From assembly GCA_041650835.1 (NCBI GenBank), contig JBAZKL010000002.1, positions 14,477-78,476 of the forward strand: a stretch of DNA of 64,000 nucleotides, written 5' to 3'. Each line of letters starts with the position of its first letter. Position 1 is the first letter of the stretch. The notes below the pieces were generated by a model that saw only the letters and a list, made by a program, of their open reading frames with translations, was not told the origin of the DNA and did not search any database. Positions 12,080 through 61,228 of this stretch are shown in pieces. Source of the stretch: Candidatus Omnitrophota bacterium. GTDB lineage: Bacteria; Omnitrophota; Gorgyraeia; Gygaellales; Profunditerraquicolaceae. The position numbers and the translations under genes are program-made.

Positions 12080-12140
12080 AATATCTAATTATTTCTATTA
12101 AAAATGCTTGACAAGATATTAGTTTTATGTTAGATATATA

Positions 12141-12431: not shown

Positions 12432-12448
12432 ATTTTTTTTGTTTTGTT

Positions 12449-12475
12449 ATTAGCACTCATGCATGTTGAGTGCTA
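12449..12475. promoter_or_regulatory. CIRCE operator (HrcA binding site), perfect consensus
   Basis: TTAGCACTC-atgcatgtt-GAGTGCTAA, with an exact 9-bp inverted repeat and a 9-nt spacer. It lies between hspR-like and clpB. Confidence 0.85.
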
Positions 12476-12523
12476 ATTAACGGATGAATTTAAAGGGGCG
12501 CTTTATAAAAAGAGAGGCAATAC

Positions 12524-15139: not shown

Positions 15140-15166
15140 TGGGTAAGAAATAATTGCGTGTAAGAG

Positions 15167-15227
15167 TTGACATATAAATAAAATATGTTAAAATTATGGT
15201 TTAGCATTCTAGGGTAGAGAGTGCTAA
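15167..15227 (+). promoter_or_regulatory. Sigma-70-type promoter (TTGACA-16-TAAAAT) followed by a CIRCE operator upstream of hrcA
   Basis: TTGACA at 15167-15172 and TAAAAT at 15189-15194. CIRCE TTAGCATTC-tagggtaga-GAGTGCTAA lies at 15201-15227, with one mismatch to consensus. Confidence 0.7.
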
Positions 15228-15240
15228 AACGAGGTGAAAA

Positions 15241-15978: not shown

Positions 15979-16597
15979 AAAGAAAGATATGGATAATAAC
16001 AAGCATAGTCATAAAGAAGCCGATAAGGCGCCTGAAAAACCGAAAGAAGATCATGATGGCGGAAAAGAAAGGTCCGTCATTATTCCCGAAGCAGAGTACG
16101 CCTTGCTTAAGGAGGATGCCGCTAAAGGACAGGAGGCCTGGGATAAGATGGTCAGGGTGCAGGCGGATTTTGATAATGTCCGTAAGCGCCTGGAACGTGA
16201 AAAACAGGAGTTCGTTAAATTCGCCAATGAAGGCATCATCGCCGAGTTATTAAATACCCTTGATGACCTTGAACGGGCGGTAGATCTCGCGGAATCCAAG
16301 CATCAGGATATGCCCGCGTTCTTAAAAGGCATTGAGATGGTTTTGGCGCATTTGTACGAGTTGTTGAAAAAACACGGAATTAAGCCGATGGATGCTTTAG
16401 GCAAGGCCTTCGACCCGAATTGTCATGAAGCATTGATGCAGGTCGAAGATAAAAATATGCCGGAGCATACCGTTGTGGAAGAATTGCAAAAAGGGTATTA
16501 TTTGAACGAACGGGTCATACGAACGGCTAAAGTGAAGGTCAGTAAGCAGAAAGCGGAAGAAAAGACCGAAGATAAAGAGGAAAAGAAAGAAAAATAG
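15968..16597 (+). CDS. grpE: Nucleotide exchange factor GrpE
   Basis: 209 aa with a GrpE coiled-coil and C-terminal domain. Overlaps the hrcA stop. Confidence 0.8.
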
Positions 16598-16640
16598 GGT
16601 TTCTCTAAACAAAGATTTAAGGAGCTCAAGGAGGTGTGTC

Positions 16641-18527: not shown

Positions 18528-18622
18528 TTTTGGAGGACAACGGGCCGGTGGTCTATAGTCGATAGTCTATGAGCAGAGCTTTAGACTATTGACCATCGAC
18601 TATTGACCCGGAGTCATTTAAC

Positions 18623-19783
18623 GTGTCTACTAAACGCGATTACTATGAAATATTAGGGGTTAAGAAAAGCGCTACCCTTGATGAGATCAAAAAAGCCTAT
18701 CGGGAGCTGGCGCTTCGCTTCCATCCGGACCGTGTTGCTCATGAGCAAAAAAAAGAAGCCGAAGAGAAATTCAAGGAGATCTCGGAGGCGTACGCTGTTT
18801 TATCCGATTCTCAAAAGCGCGCGCTCTACGACCAATACGGCCATTCGGGTATTGACCAGAAATATGCTTATGAAGATATCTTTAAAGGCGCTGATTTCGG
18901 AAGCATTTTTAAGGATATGGGCGATTACGGGTTCGGGGGAGGATTATTTGACGAGATATTCGGGGACATGGGATTTGATGTCTTCGGGTCCAGGGGAGGC
19001 AGGCAGCGGGGAGCCCGCGGCCGTAAGGGCAGAGACCTGGAGATCGCCATCGATTTGACCCTGGAAGAAGTTTCCGAGGGAGTTGAAAAGACTATTACGG
19101 TGCCGCGCTATGAAGTATGCGCTACCTGCTCCGGAAGCGGGGCTAAACCGGGCTCTAAGAAAGTCACCTGCGCGCAATGTAAAGGCTCGGGCCGAATGGT
19201 CGTCTCTAACGGGTTTTTCCAAATGGCGCAGACCTGTAACCGCTGCCATGGGGAAGGCGCGTTAGTGCAAACTCCCTGTTCCGATTGTACCGGCGAAGGC
19301 CGCGTTAAGGTCACGCGTAATATAAAGGTAAAGATCCCCGCGGGTGTGGATACCGGCTCGCATTTACGGGTCAGGGGAGAAGGAGAATCCGGTACAGCCG
19401 GAAGAGGGGACCTCTATGTTGTTATTGAGGTCAGGCAGCATCCTGTTTTTGAACGGCACAATAATGATATCCTGACCGAAGTTACCGTAAGTATAACCAA
19501 GGCGATCCTGGGTGCCGAAGTCGAAATACCCACCCTGAACGGCAAGGTCATGATGAAAATACCTCCCGGGACTCAAAGCGGCAGGATATTCCGATTGAAA
19601 GAAAAAGGCGTGCCTGATGTCCATGACAGAGGAGTGGGTGATGAATTAGTTAAGGTTAATGTGCAGATACCGGTTAATATTTCTTCGGAACAACGCAGAT
19701 TGATCGAAGAATTTTCCCGGTTATCAGGTGAGAACTCAGGTAAAGAAAGCCTTTCCGAGAAGATAAAGAAGGCTTTTAAATAA
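18623..19783 (+). CDS. dnaJ: Chaperone DnaJ
   Basis: J-domain (YYEILGV...HPD), G/F-rich region and four CxxCxGxG zinc-finger repeats. GTG start. Confidence 0.9.
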
Positions 19784-19815
19784 ATTAGTAACTAGTAACG
19801 AGTAAGGGGGAAGTT

Positions 19816-20067
19816 ATGCCGACATACGAATATGAGTGTGCTCAGTGCGGGAAGTTTGACCAATTCCAAACTATGAGCGCTGAAGCGTTAAAGAAATGCC
19901 CGAAATGCGGCAAAAAAGTCAAGAAACTCATCAGCAGCGGCGCGGGAATAATATTCAAAGGCAGCGGGTTTTATGCCACTGATTACCGTAAGCCTGCGAA
20001 ATCAAGCAGCGCTCCATCGGGCGGCTGCCCTAACGCTTCCAAAGGATGCAATGGCTGCAGCCATTAA
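19816..20067 (+). CDS. FmdB-family zinc-ribbon protein
   Basis: N-terminal MPTYEYECAQCG...CPKCG, a CxxC...CxxC zinc ribbon. Confidence 0.6.
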   Translation: MPTYEYECAQCGKFDQFQTMSAEALKKCPKCGKKVKKLISSGAGIIFKGSGFYATDYRKPAKSSSAPSGGCPNASKGCNGCSH

Positions 20068-20476
20068 GCCGGACCAACTGATGCGCTTCATTAAATACTG
20101 GATACCGGTAATAATTTATGCTATAATCATTTTTCAAGTTTCAGCGACCCCCGGGGAAGAGATCCTGACCCTGTTCCCGAAACAGGATATTGTAGCGCAT
20201 GTGCTGGAATATTTTATCTTCGCGTTGCTGATAAACCGCGCGTTAAAAGCGTATTTCCCCGGGATCTCTTTCGGCGCGAGGTTCCTCGCGGTGAGTTTAA
20301 TAGGTATCGTATACGGCGCAAGCGATGAGTTCCATCAGATGTTTGTGCCGAACCGGTATTGTTCTTCGGCCGACCTGTGGTGCGATTCGCTGGGGGTTTT
20401 TGCCGCCAATATCGTGTATGGGTTGGATGTGAGAAGATTTTCCTTGAAACATCTTCCTGTCCTTAAGAATAATTAA
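20051..20476 (+). CDS. VanZ-like membrane protein
   Basis: Multi-TM protein with GASDEFHQMF and SSADLWCDSLG, matching VanZ-family conserved residues. The start is probably ATG 20051 or 20081; the track's 19973 start overlaps the fmdB-like gene and is unlikely. Confidence 0.55.
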   Translation: MAAAIKPDQLMRFIKYWIPVIIYAIIIFQVSATPGEEILTLFPKQDIVAHVLEYFIFALLINRALKAYFPGISFGARFLAVSLIGIVYGASDEFHQMFVPNRYCSSADLWCDSLGVFAANIVYGLDVRRFSLKHLPVLKNN

Positions 20477-20480
20477 AATT

Positions 20481-21773
20481 ATGATGACTAAGATTAAACC
20501 CTTTAAAGCATTGATCTACAACCAGGAAAAGTTCCCTGATCTTTCCAAGGTGGTTTGCCCTCCTTATGATATTATTTCTCCCGCTCAACAGCAGTATTAT
20601 CATGATCTGGACGAACATAATCTTTTACACGTACTGCTTTCGAAAGACTCCCCTGATAAAGATAAGTATCAGGTTGCCGGGTCTTATTTCAGGGATTGGT
20701 TAAAAAATAAGATATTGGTCCAGGATAAGGGCCCCGCGGTGTATTTTTACAGCCATCAATATAACATCAAAGGAGAAAAGCGCATCCGTCACGGCTTTTT
20801 GGCATTGATGCGCTTAGGCGATTCAAGCGCGCCCGTATTCGCCCATGAACATACCCGGCTTGAAGCAAAAGAGGACCGCGCGCGGCTTATCCGCCAGGTT
20901 AAGGCGAATTTAAGCCCTATCTTCGTGCTTTTTCCCGATAAGAAGCGAGTGGTAGCGTATTTACACCAACAATACCTTAAAGATAAGAAACCGTTCATGG
21001 ATATCACGGATGATGAGAGGAATAATCATAAGGTCTGGAGGATAGATGCACCTGAGGTATTAGAGGCGATCCAGCAGAAGATGCAGGATGAGAATTTTTT
21101 TATAGCTGACGGGCATCACCGTTATGAAGTTGCCTGCGGGTACCGGGACGAAGTGAAAAGAAAGCAGGGGAATTTAAGCGAAGAGGATGAGTGTAATTAT
21201 ATCCTGACTTATTTTACCAATACGGATTCTTTAGGCTTGACCATATTGCCGATACACCGCCTGGTTAAGCTTGAGAAGAATTTTGATATTGAAGGCTTCA
21301 TAACAAGCCTTAAAGAATTTTTCTACGTGGAAGAGGTAAAAGATAAAGTTAAATTCTTCTTCCTGCTTGAAAAAGCCGGCAGGACCGAGCACATCATCGG
21401 AATGTATAAGAATAAAAAATATTGGCTGGTGCGTTTACGTAACATCAAGATCGTTGATAAGATGATCACCGATAGGCCGCCTGAATACCGCAGATTAGAC
21501 GTTTCTATCCTGAATTATATCATTTTGCAGCATATCCTGCGCCTGGATGTCGATAATAAGGATGTGGTGACGTTTAATCCGGAAGCTGAAGAATTGATCG
21601 ATCAGGTGGATGCGGATCCGGCGTATATTTCCTTTTTCTTGAATCCCACCAAAGTGGGGCAGATCATGTCGGTAGCCATAAACGGAAATAAAATGCCTCC
21701 TAAATCGACCTATTTTTATCCAAAAGTCCTTTCCGGCCTGGTAATAAATAAATTCAACGAGGATAAAGTATAA
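20481..21773 (+). CDS. DUF1015-family protein
   Basis: 430 aa with an N-terminus MTKIKPFKALIYN... typical of the DUF1015 family. Confidence 0.55.
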   Translation: MMTKIKPFKALIYNQEKFPDLSKVVCPPYDIISPAQQQYYHDLDEHNLLHVLLSKDSPDKDKYQVAGSYFRDWLKNKILVQDKGPAVYFYSHQYNIKGEKRIRHGFLALMRLGDSSAPVFAHEHTRLEAKEDRARLIRQVKANLSPIFVLFPDKKRVVAYLHQQYLKDKKPFMDITDDERNNHKVWRIDAPEVLEAIQQKMQDENFFIADGHHRYEVACGYRDEVKRKQGNLSEEDECNYILTYFTNTDSLGLTILPIHRLVKLEKNFDIEGFITSLKEFFYVEEVKDKVKFFFLLEKAGRTEHIIGMYKNKKYWLVRLRNIKIVDKMITDRPPEYRRLDVSILNYIILQHILRLDVDNKDVVTFNPEAEELIDQVDADPAYISFFLNPTKVGQIMSVAINGNKMPPKSTYFYPKVLSGLVINKFNEDKV

Positions 21774-46591: not shown

Positions 46592-47963
46592 TGGTGAAAT
46601 AAAGTTCGGGACTGACGGTTGGAGAGGGGTGATCGCGGAAACGTATACGTTTAAGAACGTGAAAATCGTCTCGCAGGCGGTCGCGGATTATTTGGGTAAA
46701 GGAAAGAAAGTAGTCGTCGGTTACGATACCCGCTTCATGTCCGGCCGCTTCGCGCGCACTGCAGCGGAGGTCTTGAACAATAACGGTATCTCGGTGGTCC
46801 TTTCTGATAAGGCCGTCCCGACGCCGACATTGAGCTTTGCGGTAAAAGCAAGAAAATTCGACCTGGGAGTTATGATCACGGCATCACATAATCCCGCGGA
46901 GTATAACGGCTTTAAGATAAAAAACGCTTCAGGAGGCGCGGCGGGCCCTGAAGTAACTCAAGCGGTAGAAAAGCTATTAGGGAAAACTCACCCAAAGACC
47001 GCAGGTGGCCCTTCGAGGATCGTTGTCGATGATATTATGTCCGAACAAGTCGCATTTATACGCTCCTATGTCGATTTTAATAAGATAAAGAACAAGAAGT
47101 TCAAAGTTTTAGTCGACGCGATGTATGGTTCAGGCTATGAATTTCTCGCCTACGTCCTTAAGGGCACGAACATTAAACTTGAATTTATGCGTAATACGGT
47201 CAACCCGTCTTTTGGCGGCAGGCATCCTGAGCCGCTTGAAGAGCTTGTTGAGGAATTAAAATCAAGGGTAAAGAAAGAAAAATTCGACCTGGGGATCGCC
47301 CTCGACGGCGATGCCGACCGGATCGCGGCTGTTGCCGCGGGCGGTGTCTATATTAATCCGCAGAAGATCCTGGGATTGCTCGCGCTCCATTTGAACCAGG
47401 ATAAAAAATACAGCGGCGGCATAGTCAAGACGATCGCCGGTTCGACCATGATCGATAAGATCGCCGGCTTCCTGGGGGTTGAATTGTTTGAGACTCCCGT
47501 TGGCTTTAAATATATTTCTAATCTTATGGAGACCGAGAATATCCTTACCGGCGGCGAGGAAGCAGGCGGTATGGGGGTCAAAGGTTACATCCCTGAGCGC
47601 GACGGTTCGGTAGCGGGCCTATTACTTTTGGAAATGATGGTATACCGGAATAAGGATATCCTGAAGATCTTAAATGAGGCGGAGAAGCAATTTGGAAGGT
47701 ATTATTACCTGCGTGACGACCTGAAAATAAAGAACCCCGTCGTGTTAAAAAAAGAGACGCTCCCGGGAAAATTACTGGGTAAAAAAGTAGTGGAAGTTAA
47801 GGATTATGACGGGATAAAAATGATCTGTGAGGACGAAAGCTGGCTCATGTTCCGCGCCTCAGGCACCGAGCCTATCGTGCGTATTTATACTGAATCGAAA
47901 AGTTTAGAGAGGTCCCGGCTGTTGATAGCCCTGGGCCGAAAGCTTATCGGGGGTAATCCGTAA
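46581..47963 (+). CDS. Phosphoglucomutase/phosphomannomutase family protein
   Basis: Active-site TASHNPAEYNGFK and GGEEAGG. Confidence 0.85.
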   Translation: MHGNGEIKFGTDGWRGVIAETYTFKNVKIVSQAVADYLGKGKKVVVGYDTRFMSGRFARTAAEVLNNNGISVVLSDKAVPTPTLSFAVKARKFDLGVMITASHNPAEYNGFKIKNASGGAAGPEVTQAVEKLLGKTHPKTAGGPSRIVVDDIMSEQVAFIRSYVDFNKIKNKKFKVLVDAMYGSGYEFLAYVLKGTNIKLEFMRNTVNPSFGGRHPEPLEELVEELKSRVKKEKFDLGIALDGDADRIAAVAAGGVYINPQKILGLLALHLNQDKKYSGGIVKTIAGSTMIDKIAGFLGVELFETPVGFKYISNLMETENILTGGEEAGGMGVKGYIPERDGSVAGLLLLEMMVYRNKDILKILNEAEKQFGRYYYLRDDLKIKNPVVLKKETLPGKLLGKKVVEVKDYDGIKMICEDESWLMFRASGTEPIVRIYTESKSLERSRLLIALGRKLIGGNP

Positions 47964-48562
47964 TGATATATGCGTGCTTACGCTTTCTTTCCTTCCTGGT
48001 CTTAAGGGTGTTTTTCGGGCTGCGGGTGACCGGAGTTGAGAATATACCGAAAACCGGCGGGTTTATTGTGGCGGGCAACCACGTGAGTTATTTTGACCCG
48101 GTTACTTTCGGCGTCGCTTGTTCCCGCATGAAGCTTAATTATATGGCCAAAGAGGAGCTTTTTACCAGGCCGCTTTTAGGCTGGCTCCTGCCGAGACTGC
48201 ATGTTTTTTCCGTGAGAAGGAATTCCGCCGATTTAGGCGCGATAAAAGAATCTATGCGAAGAGTAAAAAAAGGAGAAGGATTATTGTTGTTTCCTGAAGG
48301 CAGGCGTGTCAGTGAAGGTACTCCGGGTGAGCCTCTCCCCGGAGTCGGCTTCCTGGCTTCTAAACTCGGGGTCCCGGTTGTCCCTGCTTTTATTGAAGGT
48401 TCCGATAAAGTTTTACCCGTACACGCAAAGCGCATACATTTTGCGCGTATCCAGGTACGGTTTGGCAAGCAAATTTCCGTGGAAAGGAGGTTGCCGTATC
48501 AAGATGCTGCGCGAAATATCATGGATCAGATCAGGCAACTTTCATGTCAATTCCCCTGTTAG
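47963..48562 (+). CDS. plsC: 1-acyl-sn-glycerol-3-phosphate acyltransferase
   Basis: HxxxxD motif NHVSYFD and FPEGRR. Confidence 0.8.
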   Translation: MIYACLRFLSFLVLRVFFGLRVTGVENIPKTGGFIVAGNHVSYFDPVTFGVACSRMKLNYMAKEELFTRPLLGWLLPRLHVFSVRRNSADLGAIKESMRRVKKGEGLLLFPEGRRVSEGTPGEPLPGVGFLASKLGVPVVPAFIEGSDKVLPVHAKRIHFARIQVRFGKQISVERRLPYQDAARNIMDQIRQLSCQFPC

Positions 48563-48941
48563 CTCTCTTGTCGCCGCTTATTCCGCGTTGTTTTTTCTTT
48601 ACAGGGCTTTTAGCCGGAGTATCAGTTTTTTTGTCCCGGTATACCTCGAGAAAAAACTTCCGGTTTCGCAGACTCTTTAGACGGCAAACGCTTCAATTGT
48701 TTTTGTTCGAAGTATATTGTAGAAATGTTGTTTTTCATGAGTGTTTTGGCTTTAACTCATGAACTTTGCGTTAAAATCTCTCGTGAAGGAGGTGTTGTGA
48801 GCGGTAGTGAATATTCATAAAAGTATCGATCGCTTATTATACGGATAAGCTTTATATTTGCTTTTAATTACACAAATTAAAAAGCCGGGGGCGATTAGAG
48901 AAGCAAAGCTTCGTTGCGAACCGGTCAATAGGGAGGAACCA

Positions 48942-50486
48942 ATGTTGTCAGAAAAAGAAACACTTGATCAGTTATATAATGAAAGTATTAAGATAGTCCG
49001 GGAAGGCCAGATCGTAAAAGGTAAGGTCGTTTCCGTTAAGCCTAAGGGAGTTTTAATCGATGTCGGTTTTAAGTCCGAGGGCGTAGTCCCGCTTCTTGAA
49101 TTCAGCAAAGAGGAGCTGGAGATCGGCAACGAACTTGATTTCTTCGTTGAGTCCATTGAAGATGAATCGGGGATGATCGTCCTGTCGCGTGAAAAATCCC
49201 GGCGTATCCAGGGTTGGGACCGCGTCGTCAAATATTCCCAGGATGGAACGCTGGTCGAAGGCTATATCAGTAAAAAAGTGAAAGGCGGCTTTTTGGTCGA
49301 TGTTATGGGTATCGAAGGCTTCTTGCCGGCTTCACTTTCCGCGTTTAAAGGGCAGACTGACAAAGAGATCCTGAACAAAACCTTTAAATTCAAGATCATT
49401 AAGATCAATAAGCTGCGTTACAGCATCATTTTGTCCAGACGGGAAGCAGTGCAAAAAGAACGCGATGAGATGAAAGATAAGCTGTGGCGTGAATTAAAGC
49501 CGAAGTCGATTTACACGGGCACCGTTAAAGCTATTACCGATTTCGGGGCTTTTATCGATTTAGGCGGGGTTGACGGCCTGCTGCATATAACCGATATGTC
49601 ATGGTCGAAAGTCGCGCATCCGTCAGAGATCGTTGCCGTGGGAGACAGGATCGAGGTCATGGTCTTAGGGCTCGATCAGGCGGCAAACAAGATATCTCTT
49701 GGTTTAAAACAGCGCCTGCCGGATCCCTGGCAGGATATTGAAACTAAATACAGCATTGGCACCCAGGTAAAAGGTAAAATAGTCAATATTCTCCCCTACG
49801 GTGTCTTTGTCGAACTTGAAAAAGGCATTGAAGGCCTGGTCCATATTTCCGAGATCTCATGGACGAAAAAAGTCAATAATCCTAACGAAGTTTTTGCTAT
49901 CGGCGATACGGTCGAAGCGCAAGTCTTGAGTTTGGATAAAGATTCGCGCAAGATCGCTTTGAGCTTAAAGCAGCTTGAGCAAAACCCCTGGATCGACGCG
50001 GAATCGAAATTCCCCCAGGGCACTAAAGTTCAGGGTAAAGTTAAAGGATTTACCAAGTATGGCGTGTTTATCGAACTGGACAGTAATTTGGAAGGCATGG
50101 TCCATATATCCGATATGTCCTGGACGAAGCGCATCTCTCATCCGCAGGATGTCCTGAAAAAAGGCCAAAAGATAGAAGCGATCGTGCTTTCTATCGACAG
50201 CCAGAATCAAAGGATCGCCCTGGGATTAAAACAGCTGCAGCCTAATCCTTGGTCGGAAATAGCTTTAAAATACCCGCTTGAATCGTACCTGGAAGAAGTG
50301 GAAGTCGCCAGCATCACCGACTTTGGCGTATTTGTAAAGATCGAAGAGGATTTAGAGGGCTTGATCTATGCCAGCGAGATCGATAAAGATGTCGTCTCCG
50401 GCCTTAAAGTCGGCGATAAAATCAGAGTTAAAGTCATTAAGATCGATATCGAGCAGGGAAAGATCGGGTTGTCTGCTAAAATCTAA
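48942..50486 (+). CDS. rpsA: 30S ribosomal protein S1
   Basis: Six S1 domains. GGGAGG Shine-Dalgarno before ATG 48942; the track start 48858 is less likely. Confidence 0.85.
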
Positions 50487-50503
50487 GAAGGATATCCCTA
50501 TTC

Positions 50504-50535
50504 AAAGTACGGGCTCCTTTTCGGGCCCGTACTTT
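50504..50535. other. 11-bp-stem hairpin between rpsA and tyrS (no U-tract)
   Basis: AAAGTACGGGC-tccttttcgg-GCCCGTACTTT. Confidence 0.4.
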
Positions 50536-50557
50536 GACCACGGGTTGTTTATTCGAA

Positions 50558-51739
50558 ATGACCGAGATAAAAAAGCAATTAGAGATAATCAAACGCGGCG
50601 CCGTAAATATCATTTCTGAAGAGGAATTGATCAAGAAACTCCAGGTATCCGCGAGTGAGAACCGGCCGCTCATTATTAAAGCCGGGTTTGATCCTACTGC
50701 CCCCGATATCCACCTCGGGCATACCGTACTTTTGAGAAAGCTGCGCCAGTTTCAGGATTTGGGGCATTTGGTTTATTTTCTCATCGGAGATTTTACGGCC
50801 CGTATCGGGGATCCTACCGGAAGGTCAGTGACGCGTAAAACCCTCAATAAGACAGAAGTGCTGGAAAACGCCCAAACCTATAAACAACAGGTGAGTAAGA
50901 TCCTGGATATGGAAAGGGCAAAAATAGTCTTTAACAGTTCATGGTTTGACGCTATGACCGTCGTTGAGCTGCTGCAATTGACCATGCACGCGACGGTAAG
51001 CCAGATGCTCGCCCGTGCTGACTTTAAAAAGCGCCTTGAACAGAAGCAGGACGTTTGCCTCCTTGAATTTATGTATCCTATCCTCCAGGGGTATGATTCC
51101 GTCATGCTTAAAAGCGATGTCGAGATCGGGGGGACCGACCAGATATTCAACCTGCTTATGGGGCGCGACCTTCAAAGAGACTATAACCAGGAGCAGCAAG
51201 TCGTCATTACCATGCCGCTTTTGGAAGGTACCGACGGCGTGCAGAAGATGAGTAAGTCATTTGATAATTATATCGGTATCAATGAAACCCCAAAAAACAA
51301 GTTCGGAAAGATCATGTCGATCTCAGATGAGCTCATGTATAAATATTTTACCCTGTTGACCGATGAAGACCTCGACGCGGTTAAAAACATGCATCCGAAA
51401 GCGGCGAAAGAAAGGCTGGCAGAGCTGATCATCAGTTGTTATGATTCAACTGAAGCCGCGCAAGCGGCACTGGGAGAGTTTAAACGCGTTTTTAGCGATA
51501 AAGAATTGCCTGAGGATATTCCGGTTTTAGAGCTCACTGCGGCCCGCGGAGTCCTGGATATTATCATCTGCGCAGGCATCGCCAAAAGCCGCAATGAAGT
51601 TAGGCGACTGGTCCAGCAGGGCGCGGTAACCTTTGACGGCGCCAAGGTAAGCGACGAAAATCTTCAAGTCATTAAAACAGGTATTTTAAAAGTCGGCAGC
51701 CGCCGTTTCCTTAAAATAATCGTATCTCCATCGCGTTAG
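50558..51739 (+). CDS. tyrS: Tyrosyl-tRNA synthetase
   Basis: HIGH motif (PDIHLGH), KMSKS and a C-terminal S4 domain. ATG 50558 is preferred over the TTG at 50534. Confidence 0.9.
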
Positions 51740-51752
51740 AGGAGGCTTTCCT

Positions 51753-53048
51753 ATGCAGAAGGTCGCGGTAATCGGGGCAGGGTATGTAGGGCTAGTGACG
51801 GCGGTATGTTTTGCCGAATTAGGCAACCGTGTCGTCTGCGTCGATAATGACCCGGGCAAGATCGCTCTTTTGAAAAAAGGCCATGTTCCGATATATGAAC
51901 CGGGACTGGAAGCGCTGCTTAAGAAAAACGTTGCTTCGAAGCGGTTGGTTTTTTCCGGAAGCATAAAAGACGCGACCCTGCAATCGCAGGTGATCTTTAT
52001 CTGCGTTGGTACTCCGCCGCGCGATGACGGGAGCGCCGACCTGTCGGCTATTGAGAAAGTCGCCGAAACCATCGCCCGCGCGATGACCGAATATAAGGTC
52101 ATTATTGAAAAAAGCACGGTGCCGGCTGAAACGGGAGAGAAGATCAAGCGTACCATAGCAATGAACCGTGCCGGCGGTGTCGGCTTTGATGTTGTTTCAA
52201 ATCCCGAATTCCTGCGGGAAGGCCAGGCAATAGAAGATACGATGCACCCGGAGCGTATTGTGATCGGCTTGGAAAGCAAAAAAGCTGAAAAGATCATGCG
52301 CGATCTGTTTAAGCCGATCAAAGCGCCGATAATCGTGACTGATATTGAAAGCGCGGAGATCATAAAGCACGCTTCGAATTCATTCCTGGCAACAAAGATA
52401 TCGTTTATAAACGCGGTGGCCTGCGTCTGCGAGAAGGTCGGAGCCGATGTTGAAAAGGTCGCCCTCGGCATGGGGTATGATAAGCGTATAGGCAAGGCGT
52501 TTTTGCGGGCGGGCGCCGGATTCGGCGGTTTTTGTTTCCCTAAAGACCTGGACGCGTTCATTCATCTGGCCCATCATAAAGGATACGAGTTTGAGCTGCT
52601 CAAACTCGTGCGTAAAATAAACGACGGGCAGAAAAAACTGCTGATTAAGAAGATCGAAGACGCGCTTTGGATAATCAAAGATAAGACTATCGCTGTTTTA
52701 GGCTTAAGCTTTAAGCCTGATACCGATGATACGCGCTGTTCGGTAGCCATCGATGTGATCAGGATGCTTCAGGCCGCAGGCGCGGTGATCCGCGCGTACG
52801 ACCCCCAGGCTATGGCGAAAGCGCGCCTCCTCCTGGAAAACGTTACTTTCTGCAAGAGCCCTTATGAAGCGGTAAAAATGAGCAATTGCCTTTTGATCAT
52901 GACAGAGTGGGATGAGTTCCGCGCCCTGGATTTTGCCCGTATCAAGAAGCTCCTGCGACAGCCGGTCATTGTCGACGGACGCAATATGTTCGAGTGCGCA
53001 GAGATGAAAAGGCGGGGGTTTGTCTATAAATCTTTCGGGCGCGAGTAA
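51753..53048 (+). CDS. ugd: UDP-glucose 6-dehydrogenase
   Basis: GAGYVGLVTAVCFAELG Rossmann fold and catalytic Cys (GGFCFPKD). Confidence 0.85.
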   Translation: MQKVAVIGAGYVGLVTAVCFAELGNRVVCVDNDPGKIALLKKGHVPIYEPGLEALLKKNVASKRLVFSGSIKDATLQSQVIFICVGTPPRDDGSADLSAIEKVAETIARAMTEYKVIIEKSTVPAETGEKIKRTIAMNRAGGVGFDVVSNPEFLREGQAIEDTMHPERIVIGLESKKAEKIMRDLFKPIKAPIIVTDIESAEIIKHASNSFLATKISFINAVACVCEKVGADVEKVALGMGYDKRIGKAFLRAGAGFGGFCFPKDLDAFIHLAHHKGYEFELLKLVRKINDGQKKLLIKKIEDALWIIKDKTIAVLGLSFKPDTDDTRCSVAIDVIRMLQAAGAVIRAYDPQAMAKARLLLENVTFCKSPYEAVKMSNCLLIMTEWDEFRALDFARIKKLLRQPVIVDGRNMFECAEMKRRGFVYKSFGRE

Positions 53049-53084: not shown

Positions 53085-54026
53085 ATGAACATACTTGTTA
53101 CCGGCGGCGCCGGATTCATCGGGTCTCACTTATGTTCGCGGCTCTTGTCAAAAGGCTGCCGCGTTATCTGCGTCGATAATTTTATCACCAGTTCCCCGGA
53201 TAATATCCGCAAGCTGCGTAAGGACAAAAAATTCCAATTCATCCGCCATGATATTTCACAGCCGCTTAAGGTCTCCTGTTCATTGGACTGGGTGATGCAT
53301 TTTGCTTCTCTCGCTTCTCCGAAAGACTACCTGCGGTATCCGATCAAGACTTTAAAAGCCGGGACATTAGGCACGTATAACTGTTTAGGGATAGCGAAAG
53401 CTAAATCTGCAAGATTCTTCCTGGCTTCAACTTCAGAGGTTTACGGCGACCCCCAGATTTCCCCGCAGCCGGAGAAATACTGGGGCAATGTTAATCCCGT
53501 GGGGGTGCGCTCATGCTATGACGAATCCAAGCGTGCCGCTGAAGCTTTGAGCTTTGCTTATATGCGAGAACACGCGCTTTCGATCAAAGTGATCAGGATC
53601 TTTAATACGTACGGTCCGCTCATGCGTATTGATGATGGCAGGGTAGTTTCTAATTTTATTCATCAGGCTTTGACGGGGGAACCCTTGACGGTCTACGGCA
53701 AAGGCGATCAGACGCGCTCGTTCTGTTATGTGGATGACTTGATCGACGGGATCACTGCCTTTATGAAAGTCGCCGATCCGGGACCTTTAAACCTGGGGAC
53801 GCCGTTTGAATTTACTGTCCTGGAACTGGCGAAAAAGGTTTTGTCGCTGACTCACTCGAAATCAAAGGTGCGTTTCCTTCGCCTGCCTGAGGATGACCCG
53901 AAGCAGCGCAAGCCCGAGCTGACGAAAGCAAAAAAACTTATTGCCTGGAAGCCTCGCGTTACTTTGGATGAAGGACTGGCACGCACCATAGCCTATTTTC
54001 AATCGCAAATAAAAAAGAAACGATGA
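53085..54026 (+). CDS. UDP-glucuronate decarboxylase (UDP-xylose synthase-like SDR)
   Basis: [15 protein letters not shown] and YDESKR catalytic motif. It is short (313 aa), typical of UXS, and lies directly after ugd. Confidence 0.7.
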   Translation: MNILVTGGAGFIGSHLCSRLLSKGCRVICVDNFITSSPDNIRKLRKDKKFQFIRHDISQPLKVSCSLDWVMHFASLASPKDYLRYPIKTLKAGTLGTYNCLGIAKAKSARFFLASTSEVYGDPQISPQPEKYWGNVNPVGVRSCYDESKRAAEALSFAYMREHALSIKVIRIFNTYGPLMRIDDGRVVSNFIHQALTGEPLTVYGKGDQTRSFCYVDDLIDGITAFMKVADPGPLNLGTPFEFTVLELAKKVLSLTHSKSKVRFLRLPEDDPKQRKPELTKAKKLIAWKPRVTLDEGLARTIAYFQSQIKKKR

Positions 54027-55048
54027 CGCTCTCTTTAACGGAGAAAGCGCGGTTTAGTATCGACCGGAATAACCGCTTGCGCATTACCGACGGCAGTAAC
54101 AGTATCGCTCCTGCCGGCAGCTTCTCAATCGGTGCCGCGCAACGCCTTATCTATACGCTGCACGAAAGCCCCTCCTGGAGAAAAGCTAACGGCGCAATTC
54201 CCTCAAAATTAACCTTTGACGGCGCATGGCGACTGACCCCTGATTACAACCTGGAATTGATCCGTACCCCTTTCGGCGGCTCCGCGCGGAAAGAACTGCT
54301 TGTTTTGAGATGCAATTCATTGATCAATAAATCCGATTCACTTGTCTTTGAGCTTATCGGTTCTCACGGTCAACAGCGGGATTCCCTTCAATCAATATCG
54401 TTAAAAGGAAAATGGCAGGCTGACGAGCAAAACAGGCTCGTCTTTTATGCAACGGGTAAGCCGGCTGCCTCCAAGATTGTATTGGGGGGCGCCTGGGAAC
54501 TTAACAAAAACCAGCAGGTAGTATATAGTTTTGAGAAGGCCGACCTTAAGACTAAAACAAAAAAGACGCATGAGCTTTTATTCGAAGGCTTCTGGAAGAT
54601 AGATTCCCGTAACCGCTTAAGCTATAGCCTCTCAGGGAGCACTCGCTCGAGCTTTTCCTTTCGCGCGCAGCTTGAAAGTCCAAACTTGTATCCTGCCGAC
54701 AATATGATAAAATACCGTATAGGCATCGGTTTAGCGCGGCAGGCGGGTGAAAAACAAAAGACCATTTCTCTCTACGGGGTATGGAAGATCGGCCGCAGGT
54801 ATTCACCTGTCTTTGAAATGCAATACGCTCACGGCCGTATCCGGAGAATGGAGTTCGGCTCAAGGGTATCGGTCAACAGAAATAATGAAGTCATGCTGGC
54901 GCTTGTTAGCCGCGAGCATGAGCCGCTCGGTATTACCTTAACCTATACGCGTAATTTTTCCAAGAAGCTTGATGCCCGGGCTTTTGTGCGCTTGCGCAAG
55001 TCTTCGCGTGAAAATGCCGTGGAAGCGGGGATCAGTTTCCCGTTTTAA
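54023..55048 (+). CDS. Internally repetitive hypothetical protein
   Basis: 341 aa with at least 5 degenerate repeats of a G-x-W-[+/E]...L.[FY] strand motif (GAWRLTPDYNLELI, GKWQADEQNRLVFYAT, GAWELNKNQQVVYSF, GFWKIDSRNRLSYSL, GVWKIGRRYSPVFEM). No signal peptide. Its start overlaps the UXS stop by 4 nt. Confidence 0.5.
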   Translation: MTLSLTEKARFSIDRNNRLRITDGSNSIAPAGSFSIGAAQRLIYTLHESPSWRKANGAIPSKLTFDGAWRLTPDYNLELIRTPFGGSARKELLVLRCNSLINKSDSLVFELIGSHGQQRDSLQSISLKGKWQADEQNRLVFYATGKPAASKIVLGGAWELNKNQQVVYSFEKADLKTKTKKTHELLFEGFWKIDSRNRLSYSLSGSTRSSFSFRAQLESPNLYPADNMIKYRIGIGLARQAGEKQKTISLYGVWKIGRRYSPVFEMQYAHGRIRRMEFGSRVSVNRNNEVMLALVSREHEPLGITLTYTRNFSKKLDARAFVRLRKSSRENAVEAGISFPF

Positions 55049-55083: not shown

Positions 55084-55956
55084 ATGAAAGGGATCATTTT
55101 AGCAGGAGGCAGGGCGACGAGGCTCTATCCGGTCACGCGCGCGGTATGTAAACAATTACTGCCCGTCTATGATAAACCGATGATTTATTACCCATTGTCG
55201 ACATTGTTGATGACGGGTAAGATCAGGGATATTCTTATTATTTCGACTTCTGAGGCCCTTCCCGCGTTTAAGGACCTTCTGGGTAACGGATTTTCCTTAG
55301 GTATAAATATTTCGTACGCCGTCCAGGAGGAGCCCACCGGTATTGCTTCCAGTTTTCTGATCGGCGAGAAATTTATCGGAAGGGACAGGGTCTGTTTGAT
55401 CCTGGGAGATAATATTTTTTACGGGGACCATTTTTCACGGATCCTCAAATCAGGTTCTGATAAGCGGGGAGGGACGGTCATTTTCGGCTACCAGGTCAAA
55501 GATCCCGGGCGTTACGGAGTGATCAAATTCAATAAAGATTACAAAGTGCTTTCCATTCAAGAAAAGCCCAAGAAGCCGGAGTCCCACTGGGTGGTAACGG
55601 GCCTCTATTTCTATGATAATGATGTTGTGCGTATCGCTAAAAATCTTAAGCCTTCTTTGAGGGGGGAGCTTGAGATCACCGATGTTAATAACGAATATTT
55701 GAGGAAGGGCCGGTTGAAAGTACAGCTGCTCAACAGAGGGTGCGCCTGGCTTGATACCGGGACGCATGATTCCCTGATCAGCGCTTCCAGCTTTGTCCAG
55801 ACGATCGAAGACCGGCAGGGCTTAAAGATAGGCTGTATCGAAGAAGTGGCATACCGGATGGGTTATATTAATGCTGAACAGCTTTTGCGGCTGGCAAATT
55901 CAAGTTTAACCGGATATGGTGATTATCTTAAGGGGATCGTGAAAGATGAAAAATAA
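55084..55956 (+). CDS. rfbA: Glucose-1-phosphate thymidylyltransferase RmlA
   Basis: MKGIILAGGRATRLYPVT...KQLLPVYDKPMIYYPL. Confidence 0.9.
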   Translation: MKGIILAGGRATRLYPVTRAVCKQLLPVYDKPMIYYPLSTLLMTGKIRDILIISTSEALPAFKDLLGNGFSLGINISYAVQEEPTGIASSFLIGEKFIGRDRVCLILGDNIFYGDHFSRILKSGSDKRGGTVIFGYQVKDPGRYGVIKFNKDYKVLSIQEKPKKPESHWVVTGLYFYDNDVVRIAKNLKPSLRGELEITDVNNEYLRKGRLKVQLLNRGCAWLDTGTHDSLISASSFVQTIEDRQGLKIGCIEEVAYRMGYINAEQLLRLANSSLTGYGDYLKGIVKDEK

Positions 55957-56800
55957 AATCCTTGTCCTGGGAGAAGGTTTTATCGGCACCCGTATCAAAG
56001 AAGCATTGTCGGCTGAGAGCTCCGGCAGCAGGATCTCGAGCTTTGACGACGCGCGGAAGCTCGTGCGCAGGCATAAGCCTGAGATCATCATTAATTGCAT
56101 CGGCCATATAGGCGAAAATGTCGACCAATGCGAGATGGATAAAGATAAAACATTGCTTGCCAATACGTTTGTGCCGTTCATGCTCGCGGAGATAGCGCTG
56201 CGTAATAACATAAAGCTGGTGCATATTTCCAGCGGTTGTATTTATCATTACGATTACGCGGGCGACCGGCCTTTGACGGAGGAAGCCCGGCCCGATTTCT
56301 TCGACCTTTTCTACAGCCGCACTAAGATCTATTCTGAAGAGGGCCTGCGTGTTTTGTCAGCCGCGTACCCGGTTTTGATCTTGCGCATACGCATTCCGCT
56401 CGATAACCGCCCGTATAAGAGGAATTTATTGACCAAGCTGATCGGTTTTCCCGGTGTCATCGACGTGCCGAATTCAATCACCTACGTCCCTGATTTTCTC
56501 CTCGCGCTCAAACACCTGCTTTTCTCCGGTGCCAGAGGCATATATAATGTCGTTAATAAGGGAGGGTTACGTTACCCCGAGCTCCTGGATGTGTATAAAA
56601 AATATGTCCCTGATTTTTCCTACCGGGTGATCGATTACAAGAAATTAAAACTCATCAGGACTAACCTGCTTTTGTCTGTCCGTAAACTGGAAAAAAGCGG
56701 CTTTACCGTGCGTTCTATCCGCGACTGCCTTGATGAATGCGTCAGTCAGTATTGCGGGGGAGCCCTCGCTTCCGCGCGCCGTAAAGGAGGAATCGTATGA
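55946..56800 (+). CDS. rfbD: dTDP-4-dehydrorhamnose reductase RmlD
   Basis: KILVLGEGFIGTRI Rossmann fold. RmlD-like length (284 aa) and context. Confidence 0.75.
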   Translation: MKNKILVLGEGFIGTRIKEALSAESSGSRISSFDDARKLVRRHKPEIIINCIGHIGENVDQCEMDKDKTLLANTFVPFMLAEIALRNNIKLVHISSGCIYHYDYAGDRPLTEEARPDFFDLFYSRTKIYSEEGLRVLSAAYPVLILRIRIPLDNRPYKRNLLTKLIGFPGVIDVPNSITYVPDFLLALKHLLFSGARGIYNVVNKGGLRYPELLDVYKKYVPDFSYRVIDYKKLKLIRTNLLLSVRKLEKSGFTVRSIRDCLDECVSQYCGGALASARRKGGIV

Positions 56801-57777
56801 AGCTTTTAGTTACCGGAGGAGCCGGGTTTATCGGGAGTGAATTTGTCAGGCAGTCGCTCGGGAAGAAGCATAAGGTCATTGTCCTTGACGCATTGACCTA
56901 TGCCGGCGACCTGAAGCGCTTGGATGAGGTAAAGGGGAGATTCGCCTTATATAAAGCGGATATTTGCGACCGCAGGGCGCTGGCAGGGATATTCAAGAAA
57001 GAAAAACCCGACATGGTGGTCAATTTTGCCGCGGAGTCGCATGTGGACCGTAGTATCCGGGACGCGGCTCCTTTTATTAAAACGAATGTTTCCGGAACAG
57101 AGGCCCTTTTAGCTGTTTCGCGGCTTTATGGAATAAAGCGTTTCGTGCATATTTCGACGGATGAAGTTTACGGCGATATTAAACGAGGTAGGTTCGTAGA
57201 AGGCGACCCGCTCAATCCGAGCAGCCCCTACGCGGCCTCCAAGGCGGCCGCCGACCTGTTGATAAAGTCTTATGTGCGCACGTATTCGTTGCCCGCGGTC
57301 ATCATCCGCCCCAGTAATAATTACGGGCCGTGGCAGTATCCTGAAAAATTTATCCCCCTTTCGATCATGAAGCTGTTACACGGAGAAAAGATCCCGCTTT
57401 ACGCAGACGGAAGAAATGTCCGCGAATGGCTTTTTGTCGAAGACTGCGCCAGGGGTATCCTTAAAATAATGAGCAGCGCAAAAAACGGTGAGATCTATAA
57501 CCTCGGCAGTGATATTGAAAAACAAAATATAGACGTGGCAAAAATGATCTTGTCGGCTTTAAAGCTTTCTGCCGGAAGGATAGAATTCGTCAAAGACAGG
57601 CCCGGCCACGATATCCGTTACCGCCTTGATTCATCGAAATTAAAGCGCCAGGCCTCCTGGAAGGCGCAGGTAAGCCTGCCTGCCGGATTGCTTAAGACTA
57701 TAACCTGGTGCCGCCGCAACGAAGCGTGGTTATCGAGCAAACGCAAGGACATTTCAGATTTTTATAAGAGCCGTTGA
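56797..57777 (+). CDS. rfbB: dTDP-glucose 4,6-dehydratase RmlB
   Basis: [24 protein letters not shown] (YxxxK) and STDEVYG. Confidence 0.85.
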   Translation: MKLLVTGGAGFIGSEFVRQSLGKKHKVIVLDALTYAGDLKRLDEVKGRFALYKADICDRRALAGIFKKEKPDMVVNFAAESHVDRSIRDAAPFIKTNVSGTEALLAVSRLYGIKRFVHISTDEVYGDIKRGRFVEGDPLNPSSPYAASKAAADLLIKSYVRTYSLPAVIIRPSNNYGPWQYPEKFIPLSIMKLLHGEKIPLYADGRNVREWLFVEDCARGILKIMSSAKNGEIYNLGSDIEKQNIDVAKMILSALKLSAGRIEFVKDRPGHDIRYRLDSSKLKRQASWKAQVSLPAGLLKTITWCRRNEAWLSSKRKDISDFYKSR

Positions 57778-57796
57778 AGTTCAGTCCCATCAAATA

Positions 57797-58888
57797 GTGA
57801 GGAGTTTTGAAGCCGTGTCAATCGTGATCGTTACCGGTTCTTGCGGGCTTATCGGTTCTCAGACAGCGGGTTTTTTTTGCGAAAAAGGCTTTGATGTCGT
57901 CGGGATCGATAATAATATGCGACAGGCTTTTTTCGGCAGGGACGCTAGTATCCTCAAGAACAGATATATGCTCCAGAAAGCCCATCCCCGGTACCGCCAC
58001 CTTTGGATCGATGTCCGCGACCAGGAAAAGACCGAGTCAGCCTTTAAGAAATTCAGGAATTCTATACGGTTAGTCGTGCATACGGCAGCTCAACCATCCC
58101 ATGATTGGGCTTCCTCGGCGCCGCTGGTTGATTTCGACATAAATGCCCGCTCGACTATCGCCATACTGGAAGCGTTGAGAAAGAATTGCCCTCGCGCCGT
58201 ATTTATCCTTACCTCTACCAATAAAGTTTACGGCGACAGGCCGAACCAGCTGCCTCTCGTCGAAAGAGCGACACGCTACGATCTGCCGAAAACCCATGCC
58301 TGTTATAAGGGGATCAATGAAACAATGCCTGTTGATCAATGCACGCATAGTTTAATGGGGGCTTCTAAGCTTTCAGCCGATATTATCACCCAGGAATACG
58401 GCAAATACTTCGGCTTTAAAACCGGGATTTTCAGGCTTGGGTGCGTGAGCGGGCCTGCGCATACGGGAGTTAAGATCCACGGATTCCTGTCATATTTAAT
58501 CCAATGTTGTGTCCTGAAGCGCCCCTACGTGATCTATGGTTACCGGGGAAAACAGCTGCGTGACGTGATCCATTCCTATGATGTATCCAGCGCCTTTTAC
58601 CGGTTTTACAAAAAACCGTCATCCGGTGAAGTTTATAATCTGGGAGGAGGGCGCCGGGCTTGTCTTTCAGTGCTTGAGGCAATTTCCCTCTGTGAGAAGA
58701 TTTCAGGTGAAAAAATGATTTGCCGCTACGATCCTTTGCCTCGCCGGGGGGACCATAAGTGGTGGATCAGTGATACCTCTAAATTTCAAGCGCAGTATCC
58801 TGAATGGAAATATAAGTATGTTTTGGAAGAAGCGGTGCGGCAGATCTTCGCCGCGCGAAGAGGCTGTATGAAAATAAGATCATCTTGA
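57797..58888 (+). CDS. NAD-dependent sugar epimerase, CDP-paratose/tyvelose 2-epimerase-like
   Basis: VTGSCGLIGSQ Rossmann fold, STNKVYGD and YGASKLSAD. The start may be GTG 57815 after the GAGGAG Shine-Dalgarno. Confidence 0.6.
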   Translation: MRSFEAVSIVIVTGSCGLIGSQTAGFFCEKGFDVVGIDNNMRQAFFGRDASILKNRYMLQKAHPRYRHLWIDVRDQEKTESAFKKFRNSIRLVVHTAAQPSHDWASSAPLVDFDINARSTIAILEALRKNCPRAVFILTSTNKVYGDRPNQLPLVERATRYDLPKTHACYKGINETMPVDQCTHSLMGASKLSADIITQEYGKYFGFKTGIFRLGCVSGPAHTGVKIHGFLSYLIQCCVLKRPYVIYGYRGKQLRDVIHSYDVSSAFYRFYKKPSSGEVYNLGGGRRACLSVLEAISLCEKISGEKMICRYDPLPRRGDHKWWISDTSKFQAQYPEWKYKYVLEEAVRQIFAARRGCMKIRSS

Positions 58889-59980: not shown

Positions 59981-61228
59981 ATGCAGTGCAGGTTTTGTAA
60001 CAGCAGATTAGAAGACCTTTTTGTGTCTCTGGGAGAGTCTCCTTTATCAAATGCCTATTTGCGTAAGGCAGATCTACGGCGTACAGAGCATCGTTTCCCG
60101 TTGGATGTTTATGTCTGCAAGGATTGCTTTCTGGTGCAACTGCCTGAATATGAAAGCCCCGAGAATATCTTCAGCGATTACGCTTATTTTTCATCTTATT
60201 CCGATACCTGGTTGAAACATGTTCTGGCTTACGCTTTAGAAATGGCAAAAAAGTTTTCCCTCGGCGGCAGCTCGAAAGTCGTTGAAATTGCCAGCAATGA
60301 CGGATGCCTGCTGAAAAATTTTATCGCTCAAGGCATACCCGTCCTGGGGATCGAGCCTGCGCTCAATGTCGCGGAAGTTGCTGTCCGTAACGGCGTCCCC
60401 ACGCAAGCGGTATTTTTCAGCGAAGCCACAGCCAAGCGCTTACGTGATGAAGGAAACGCCGCCGACCTTTTGGTAGGCAATAATGTCCTGGCGCACGTCC
60501 CTGATATTAATGATTTCGTGCGGGGCCTTAAGATACTCCTGAAGCCTTCAGGGGTTATTACCCTGGAATTCCCTCATTTAAAGCGCCTGATCGAAGAAAA
60601 TCAATTTGACACTATCTACCATGAGCATTTTTCTTACTTTTCTTTTTTAACCGTGGAAAAAATATTTTTAAAGCATGGTTTAACGATATTTGATGTTGAG
60701 GAGCTCAAGACTCACGGAGGGTCGCTGCGGATCTACGGCAAACATTCAACGGACAAGACAAAAACAACTTCTCCCCGCGTGCTTGAGATGAGGGAAAACG
60801 AAGCGCTCGCCGGTTTCGGCAGTATCATGGCGTACACGGCATTCCAAAATAACGTGCGAAGGATCAAGGAGGATACCCGGGATCTTCTCGCGCGGCTTAA
60901 ACGCCGGGGAAAGACTATTGCCGGATACGGAGCGCCCGCGAAAGGAAATACCTTCCTGAATTATTGCGGTATCACTGTCGCCGATATCCCTTACACGGTC
61001 GATAGAAATCCGCATAAACAGGGCCGTTTCCTGCCCGGCAGCCATATCCGAATAGAAAATCCCGATAAAATAAAAGAAACCAGGCCTGATTACGTCTTGA
61101 TCTTGCCCTGGAACATTAAAGAAGAGGTCATGGAGCAAATTTCATTTATCCGCGACTGGGGCGGAGAATTTATCACCGCTATCCCTAAATTGGAGATCCA
61201 TTCAAATAAACTGATGGAGTATGTATGA
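59981..61228 (+). CDS. NDP-sugar C-methyltransferase (N-terminal zinc-binding domain plus SAM MTase)
   Basis: CRFCNS...CKDCFLVQL zinc ribbon, a class I SAM-binding region ([12 protein letters not shown]) and a C-terminal domain typical of TylC3/EryBIII-type sugar C-methyltransferases. Confidence 0.65.

Follow-up and report, generated by a model that had tools for sequence, protein, structure and literature searches.

A predicted β-hairpin repeat protein family encoded mainly within glycan clusters of Omnitrophota

We analysed a 64,000-nucleotide stretch of a Candidatus Omnitrophota genome (assembly GCA_041650835.1, contig JBAZKL010000002.1, positions 14,477 to 78,476), hereafter the window. 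Embedded among its nucleotide-sugar genes is an open reading frame (ORF) at 54023–55048 on the forward strand, which encodes a protein of 341 residues (the window protein). This protein belongs to a conserved single-domain family of uniform length (~330 residues), known only from Omnitrophota apart from a few otherwise-labelled metagenome-assembled genomes (MAGs). Below, we describe the gene, the repeat architecture of its product and the setting of the family across genomes, and then weigh what the family might do.

The gene and its position in the operon

The genes of the locus run in the order ugd, UXS, window ORF, rmlA, an rmlD-like short-chain dehydrogenase/reductase (SDR), rmlB and further SDR epimerases (coordinates in Table 1). 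They are part of a glycan cluster, a co-directional operon that exceeds 30 kb and within which terminator signal does not rise above chance; promoter and terminator scans around the window ORF likewise returned counts at chance level. The ORF, 341 codons and a stop, is a genuine gene. In the sequence ...aaacgATGAcg..., its ATG (54023–54025) overlaps the TGA of UXS (54024–54026). No Shine–Dalgarno-like purine run was found 5′ of it, unlike the aaggggtgag that precedes rmlA, and together the overlap and the missing run fit translation coupled to UXS. A longer N terminus of the protein is excluded because an in-frame stop (53969–53971) lies 51 nt 5′ of the ATG with no ATG, GTG or TTG in between.

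Hydropathy analysis found no signal peptide and no transmembrane segment in the window protein: the highest Kyte–Doolittle mean over 19 residues is 0.9, the N-terminal 10-residue maximum is 1.14 and the N terminus is polar. Across 143 family members no Sec signal peptide was found and the first 45 residues have low hydropathy; the hydropathy cut-offs were exceeded by four members, none of which has a signal-peptide-like N terminus. The isoelectric point (pI) is 10.2 for the window protein, compared with a median of 9.96 and a 5–95% range of 8.9–11.0 for the 143 members, and serine accounts for 37 of its 341 residues. Judged from its sequence, the window protein is soluble, strongly basic and cytoplasmic. 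A first-pass annotation, made from the DNA alone, had placed the ORF between UXS and rmlA with its start overlapping the UXS stop and had seen no signal peptide or transmembrane segment; re-identification of the neighbours, the ATGA overlap, the hydropathy and the fixed start all agree with it.

A repeat unit of about 29 residues

The window protein contains five G-x-W motifs, at residues 67, 129, 156, 189 and 252 (spacings of 62, 27, 33 and 63 residues). Tandem repetition is statistically supported. The best local alignment of the protein with itself scores 61, against 31.7 ± 5.0 (maximum 44) in 100 shuffles. When the family alignment was cut into pieces and the pieces compared with hhalign, these sub-profiles matched each other with probabilities of up to 94% for blocks of ~57 residues and up to 97.6% (E 4e-12) for units of ~29 residues. 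The first-pass annotation had proposed at least five repeats of about 45 residues; the repeats and the five motifs stand, but the unit is ~29 residues long and is present in nine detectable copies.

The unit is a β-hairpin with the consensus Φ-x-Φ-x-G-x-W-x-Φ (Φ, hydrophobic), a D/N-rich turn (often N-R or N-Q) and Φ-x-[FY]-x-Φ; in the predicted structure, it consists of a long strand broken at the glycine, a tight turn and a return strand. The nine copies are mutually related (Table 1). Five keep G-x-W and four have lost it, which explains the irregular spacing of the motif. The parts that do not resemble the repeat are residues 206–238, for which hhalign found no similarity to the other units, and the last ~40 residues. 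Conservation peaks at the hairpin turns W-Q-A-D-E-x-N-R, W-Q-x-N-K-N-Q-Q and L-K-T-K-T-K and at the loop formed by residues 206–238.

Predicted structure

An AlphaFold2 run with 61 sequences (predicted local distance difference test score, pLDDT, 71.8) was confident for residues 10–215 only and poor for the C-terminal 40%, and was replaced by a second run with 143 more diverse sequences (pLDDT 87.9, predicted TM-score 0.83; five models at 84–88). The model from 143 sequences has 30 β-strands, many of just 4–6 residues, and two short helical turns; its last ~30 residues are uncertain. DSSP breaks or narrows the strand at the glycine of each of the five G-x-W motifs. Strands are hydrophobic on one face (for example, L185, F187, W191 and I193), which implies a packed sheet and not a single layer. 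Mean-field direct-coupling analysis (253 sequences, effective number 219; noisy) recovered the hairpins, a contact linking 185/187 to 211, by which the first half of the long strand pairs with the strand following the next hairpin, and a coupling between 223/224 and 341. The window protein is thus predicted to be all-β, and the family is a candidate for a new β-repeat architecture.

The C terminus ends in a conserved strand. Of 143 members, 142 end in an aromatic residue (F in 105, W in 36 and Y in 1), and glycine occupies position −5 in 240 of 253 sequences. The terminal residue co-varies with Y223/P224: a terminal F goes with P or A at 224, and a terminal W with G or a gap. The pattern resembles size compensation where the terminal residue docks, whether inside one chain or across a subunit interface.

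Comparison with known families and folds

Sequence searches did not connect the family to any known one. The best Pfam match of the window protein was YoeB_toxin (E 0.08, 13.4 bits against a cut-off of 27), NCBIfam gave no match and the best E value among PDB sequences was 0.19. PHROGs and PADLOC hidden Markov models also gave no match, and so lend no support to a phage or defence-system protein. A Pfam scan of 61 members returned nothing better than E 0.0013, and family and structure-sequence searches with profiles of the 61 sequences and of the 29-residue unit yielded no significant match. Foldseek searches of 350,542 PDB chains with both AlphaFold2 models gave no meaningful match either; the top hits were β-propellers and OspA, at TM-scores of 0.10–0.15 and root mean square deviations (r.m.s.d.) of 17–26 Å. 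The same was true of BFVD, where MORN proteins were among the very weak hits. No sequence or fold match was found to the dTDP- and UDP-sugar enzymes (RmlA–D, Ugd, UXS and cupin epimerases/isomerases) or to glycosyltransferase accessory domains. The initial view of the protein as unannotatable and foreign to the known dTDP/UDP-sugar pathways is upheld by Pfam, NCBIfam, PDB and Foldseek alike.

The closest resemblance in motif is to the calycins. The first strand of the unit, Φ-x-G-x-W-K-Φ-D/N, corresponds to the strand A motif of lipocalins and fatty-acid-binding proteins, with a glycine bulge and then tryptophan, and all five G-x-W motifs lie on a kinked first strand. Lipocalin_4 (PF13648) appeared below threshold in 8 of the 61 members, starting at a G-x-W; among PDB sequences, the unit profile came closest to the N terminus of fatty-acid-binding proteins, without reaching significance; and DUF5004 was the other calycin-type Pfam family named as nearest. 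We rejected this assignment: the best Lipocalin_4 score was 13.3 bits, under the gathering score of 22.4, and no calycin was present among the 50 best Foldseek PDB hits, for which TM-scores did not exceed 0.15. Moreover, calycins carry the motif once per barrel of 8 to 10 strands, whereas in the window protein it recurs every ~29–60 residues.

MORN and choline- or cell-wall-binding repeats resemble the family in being short repeated hairpins with Gly-x-aromatic in the first strand. These repeat families are known as binders or scaffolds and not as enzymes. Their periods (23 residues for MORN, ~20 for cell-wall-binding repeats) differ from the ~29 residues seen here, and the one-sided hydrophobic strands of the window protein imply a packed core and not a single-layer sheet. 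MORN (PF02493) gave no hit at E ≤ 10 in the window protein and none in the 61 members, and the choline- and cell-wall-binding repeat families of Pfam likewise matched neither. A ricin-type β-trefoil (QxW)3 lectin was dismissed because no Pfam match was found and no trefoil appeared among the Foldseek hits, and a β-propeller was dismissed because the top hits, although propellers, had TM-scores of 0.10–0.15 with r.m.s.d. above 17 Å.

Distribution of the family

A word-indexed search returned 197 relatives at 90% clustering, none with a Pfam domain; those with names were listed as ‘hypothetical protein’ of Candidatus Omnitrophota, and one, from a MAG contig, is identical to the window protein. 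A profile search of 1.84 billion representatives gave 473 clusters (50% identity) at E ≤ 1e-3, 303 of them at E ≤ 1e-30. Among the best 150 of the 473 clusters, most sequences are 310–366 residues long and match end to end in a single stretch, the shorter ones being fragments or a ~250-residue short form; no added domains were found in these 150. A scan of GTDB species genomes identified 29 loci, of which 26 are from Omnitrophota MAGs; the other labels were Planctomycetales (two contigs of one MAG and one of a second) and, for one MAG, ‘bacterium’. When the most divergent member served as the query, the named hits were again from Omnitrophota only. Literature searches found no description of the family or of Omnitrophota O-antigen clusters.

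The short form lacks the first ~100 residues and occurs in L008 (8001–8750), L029, L031, L034, L036 and L037 (L numbers denote individual loci), as fits a modular repeat protein. A Peptidase_C1 (papain-like) gene follows the short form in L008 and L029 and the full-length gene in L019 and L024.

A constant gene in a variable cluster

We surveyed the genomic context at about 35 loci and measured the upstream gap in 27. The family gene lies inside a Wzx-type glycan cluster in most of them, always on the same strand as its neighbours and in most loci 3 to 8 genes into the cassette. The upstream gap is 16 nt or less in 20 of the 27 (median about 2 nt); in five, including one where the neighbour is tyrS, the genes overlap by 4 nt. 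The close relative in L006 has the same order as the window (plsC, rpsA, tyrS, ugd, UXS, family gene, rmlA, rmlD-like, rmlB). The commonest order among distant members is tyrS, wzx, two GT2 genes, a B12-binding radical S-adenosylmethionine (B12-radical-SAM) gene and the family gene, followed by SemiSWEET, rmlA or GT2. In other loci, the gene directly 5′ is tyrS (L013, L025 and L027, with overlap of the tyrS stop in L013), wzx (L017 and L035), or rmlB or an epimerase gene (L012, L021, L029, L036 and L037), and in L001 and L009 the family gene sits deep in a glycan cluster and does not adjoin tyrS. The surrounding sugar genes also vary: UXS and rml genes in the window, and NeuB, GFO/hexapeptide, DegT, carbamoyltransferase or radical SAM sets elsewhere, with no rml genes nearby in L003 and L007. 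Across loci with differing sugar genes, the family proteins are ~40% identical.

Co-occurrence with ugd–UXS, a check suggested by the first-pass annotation, did not hold up. This pair precedes the family gene only in the close relatives of the window, and we rejected a partnership with it; the upstream gene is most often the B12-radical-SAM gene and elsewhere encodes RmlB, an epimerase, Wzx or TyrS. Because the upstream gene changes between loci, the association is with the cluster and not with ugd–UXS. A specific partnership with the B12-radical-SAM protein was rejected too, as no ortholog was found in the cluster of the window genome within 21 kb. Beyond the end of the window, that cluster extends over 10 kb or more, with heptose genes, E1/transketolase-like genes, a thiamine pyrophosphate (TPP) enzyme and a B12-radical-SAM gene that is not orthologous to the one usually preceding the family.

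Several features of the clusters themselves were observed. The plsC, rpsA, tyrS block (window 47963–51739; also L003, L006, L007, L011, L013, L021, L027, L035 and L039) is a conserved anchor directly 5′ of a glycan cassette of variable content, in agreement with the reported hypervariability of Omnitrophota polysaccharide cassettes (bioRxiv 10.64898/2026.06.07.730766). The window at 59981–61228 and L038 at 11533–21527, a part that lies beyond the window, encode a sugar C-methyltransferase of TylC3 type, E1-dehydrogenase/transketolase-like subunits, a TPP enzyme, a B12-radical-SAM protein and several methyltransferases, a gene set that suggests heavily modified or branched-chain sugars. SemiSWEET/PQ-loop genes of 72–89 codons recur, often right after the family gene (L001 9149–9409, L003 13936–14154, L008 9637–9900 and L039 8014–8283); their small products might import sugars or flip lipid-linked sugars. 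In L001 (9406–11415), a 669-residue Epimerase/GDP_Man_Dehyd protein is interrupted by LAGLIDADG_3, which looks like an intein in a sugar epimerase/dehydratase of an Omnitrophota MAG. Finally, no cupin-type rmlC was found in the rml set of the window (55084–58888: rmlA, a 284-residue rmlD-like SDR, rmlB and a 363-residue SDR) or in the next 10 kb (covered in L038, 1–21527), and the rmlA/rmlD-like/rmlB trio without rmlC recurs in L006, L008, L020 and L025. Possible explanations are a bifunctional 3,5-epimerase/4-reductase activity of the rmlD-like SDR or an rmlC gene at another site in the genome. Bifunctional epimerase/reductases include GDP-fucose synthase and the plant NRS/ER enzymes.

Table 1 Features of the window ORF and its neighbours (positions in the window)
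Feature	Position	Strand	Basis or remark
ugd, precedes UXS	51753–53048	+	Gene context
UXS-like SDR decarboxylase, 313 residues, upstream context	53085–54026	+	SDR/GDP_Man_Dehyd family
ATGA start/stop overlap with UXS	54023–54026	+	Translational coupling; without own Shine–Dalgarno sequence
Hairpin unit 1 (residues 3–25; degenerate, without G-x-W; ...ARFSIDRNNRLRIT...)	54029–54097	+	hhalign u1–u2 94.5%, u1–u5 93.3%; strands 10–13/19–23
Hairpin unit 2 (residues 24–50; G32-x-F34 replaces G-x-W)	54092–54172	+	hhalign u2–u5 96.8%, u2–u7 96.7%
Hairpin unit 3 (residues 57–86; G67-A-W69)	54191–54280	+	hhalign u3–u6 97.5%
Hairpin unit 4 (residues 87–116; degenerate, without G-x-W)	54281–54370	+	hhalign u4–u5 93.8%
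Hairpin unit 5 (residues 119–147; G129-K-W131-Q-A-D-E-x-N-R, turn conserved)	54377–54463	+	Motif, conservation, hhalign
Hairpin unit 6 (residues 146–176; G156-A-W158; conserved N-K-N-Q-Q turn, then basic loop L-K-T-K-T-K)	54458–54550	+	hhalign u6–u7 97.6%, E 4e-12
Hairpin unit 7 (residues 177–207; G189-F-W191; G189 family-invariant)	54551–54643	+	Conservation, hhalign
Non-repeat segment, best conserved (residues 206–238; S-x-F-x-F-R-x-Q-L-E-S-P-N-L-Y-P...I-K-Y-R-I-G-I-G); candidate functional loop	54638–54736	+	Conservation
Hairpin unit 9 (residues 242–271; G252-V-W254; G252 invariant)	54746–54835	+	hhalign u3–u9 96.4%, u7–u9 96.0%
Hairpin unit 10 (residues 270–299; degenerate)	54830–54919	+	hhalign u3–u10 83%, u4–u10 78%
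Conserved C-terminal strand, E-x-x-[VI]-E-A-G-Φ-[RK]-Φ-P-[FW]-COOH	55010–55045	+	Family alignment
rmlA (glucose-1-phosphate thymidylyltransferase family), downstream context	55084–55956	+	Followed by rmlD-like, rmlB

A possible role in glycan assembly

The reading that we favour, while giving it somewhat less than an even chance, is that the family is a non-catalytic, cytoplasmic, basic binding or scaffold protein for a sugar-independent step in the assembly of glycans. Because the same family persists amid differing sugar chemistry, such a role seems likelier than that of a pathway-specific enzyme. The first-pass annotation had suggested a scaffold, a lectin-like or sugar-binding module or a novel enzyme fold. 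The internal repeats, the conserved Trp, Asn, Gln, Asp and Arg of the turns, the Lys/Arg patches and a pI of about 10 together point most readily to binding or scaffolding of anionic partners at the membrane. In the mechanism that we envisage, about nine 29-residue β-hairpins and the conserved loop of residues 206–238 would form the body of the protein, with the C-terminal aromatic residue docking back onto the loop. In most genomes, translation of this constant component of a variable Wzx-type cluster is tightly coupled to that of whichever gene precedes it. The protein would sit at the cytoplasmic face of the inner membrane and hold anionic intermediates linked to lipids or nucleotides, or else the enzymes producing them, probably without catalysing any reaction itself. 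The putative binding surface combines a row of these conserved residues (Trp, Asn, Gln, Asp and Arg), carried by one turn after another, with conserved Lys/Arg patches. A precedent is the C-terminal domain of Wzt, a non-catalytic, cytoplasmic, all-β glycan-binding β-sandwich encoded in an O-antigen cluster. Wzt-C is fused to an ABC transporter subunit and reads a specific chain-end modification, whereas the window protein is stand-alone and the family is found in Wzx-type clusters; no sequence or fold similarity between the two was detected.

Some observations weigh against a binding or scaffold role in glycan assembly. Three divergent members lie outside glycan clusters, so the function of the family need not concern glycans at all. 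In L032, the gene adjoins those for a HAMP-domain protein, a glucoamylase, a PC4-like protein and a phosphate transporter; in L030, those for a phosphoesterase, an EamA half-transporter and a CitMHS transporter; and in L040 (3816–8500), those for a PAS histidine kinase, an MshEN-PilZ protein and a DUF748 (AsmA-like) protein. Comparison of the small ORFs upstream of the family gene in L032 and in L040 showed no relationship between them. In addition, the invariant polar residues N137, Q164, Y201 and Y268 could equally form an active site, and the basic charge and conserved aromatic residues would also fit nucleic-acid binding.

The possible active site leads to a rather unlikely alternative, a new all-β enzyme that carries out a generic step (modification, chain termination or trimming of a lipid-linked glycan) or supplies an absent rml step, for instance the 3,5-epimerization. 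Besides the four residues just named, D134, E218, K230 and R232 are invariant or near-invariant, the gene is embedded among enzyme genes and coupled to them, and the rml set of the window lacks rmlC. However, no sequence or fold similarity to any enzyme, cupin RmlC included, was found, and proteins of internally repeated hairpins are usually binders. The family is also carried by the L003 and L007 clusters, which have no rml genes nearby, and the neighbouring chemistry varies, and the rmlD-like SDR could itself supply both the epimerase and the reductase activity. Equally, the charge and the outlying loci raise an unlikely non-glycan function, in which the family would have a housekeeping or regulatory task specific to the phylum, for example, binding nucleic acids to aid expression of long operons, and its position next to rpsA–tyrS and the cassette would be inherited gene order. 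The high pI with conserved aromatic and basic residues, the loci in which tyrS directly precedes the gene or is overlapped by it, the presence of L030, L032 and L040 members among transporters, signalling genes, a glucoamylase gene and a PC4-like gene, and the long co-directional operon with its chance-level terminator signal would all suit such a function. It accounts poorly for L001 and L009, where the gene does not adjoin tyrS, and for its usual position several genes into the cassette, and Pfam detected no known nucleic-acid-binding domain in the window protein or the 61 members.

The C-terminal strand brings to mind an outer-membrane β-barrel, whose β-signal has the pattern polar-x-G-x-x-Φ-x-aromatic at the C terminus. 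With its all-β composition, 341 residues, ~30 predicted strands and an ending E-A-G-x-[RK]-Φ-P-[FW]-COOH that fits this signal and is almost always aromatic, the window protein could be a porin for glycan export or anchoring that takes an unconventional path to the outer membrane, and sub-threshold Pfam hits to BBP2 (two members) and the PelB C-terminal barrel (one member) point the same way. We consider this improbable, as no signal peptide was found in the family, the start codon of the window ORF cannot be moved upstream, many of the predicted strands span just 4–6 residues and the pI is about 10. By Foldseek, the 50 best hits of the confident model include no outer-membrane barrel, and the co-variation of the terminal F/W with Y223/P224 suggests internal or inter-subunit docking instead. 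Most improbable of all is an acceptor protein that is glycosylated by the cluster: the window protein is Ser-rich and repetitive and is encoded among glycosyltransferase genes in related loci, but conservation falls on structural residues (G, W, F, Y and N) and not on Ser/Thr sequons, there is no export signal, and the clusters carry Wzx/Wzy genes for lipid-linked glycans.

A bolder form of the binding or scaffold role, which we regard as distinctly unlikely, is that the family represents a new fold and a hitherto unrecognised core part of Wzx-type glycan assembly, specific to the phylum: it would act in the cytoplasm as a carrier or adaptor, binding polyprenyl-(pyro)phosphate-linked intermediates or tethering soluble nucleotide-sugar enzymes to the membrane machinery. 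No dedicated protein for such a carrier or adaptor role is known from model bacteria.

Conserved hypothetical families are common in candidate phyla, and at present this one stands as a well-delimited family with a consistent genomic setting, not as a demonstrated mechanism. A constant gene within a variable cassette, translated in step with its neighbours and without a detectable relative in sequence or fold, makes a good candidate for a generic step of glycan assembly that has yet to be described. The Omnitrophota comprise tiny bacteria of wide distribution, many of which seem to depend on hosts, and their surface glycans are therefore likely to shape contact with other cells.

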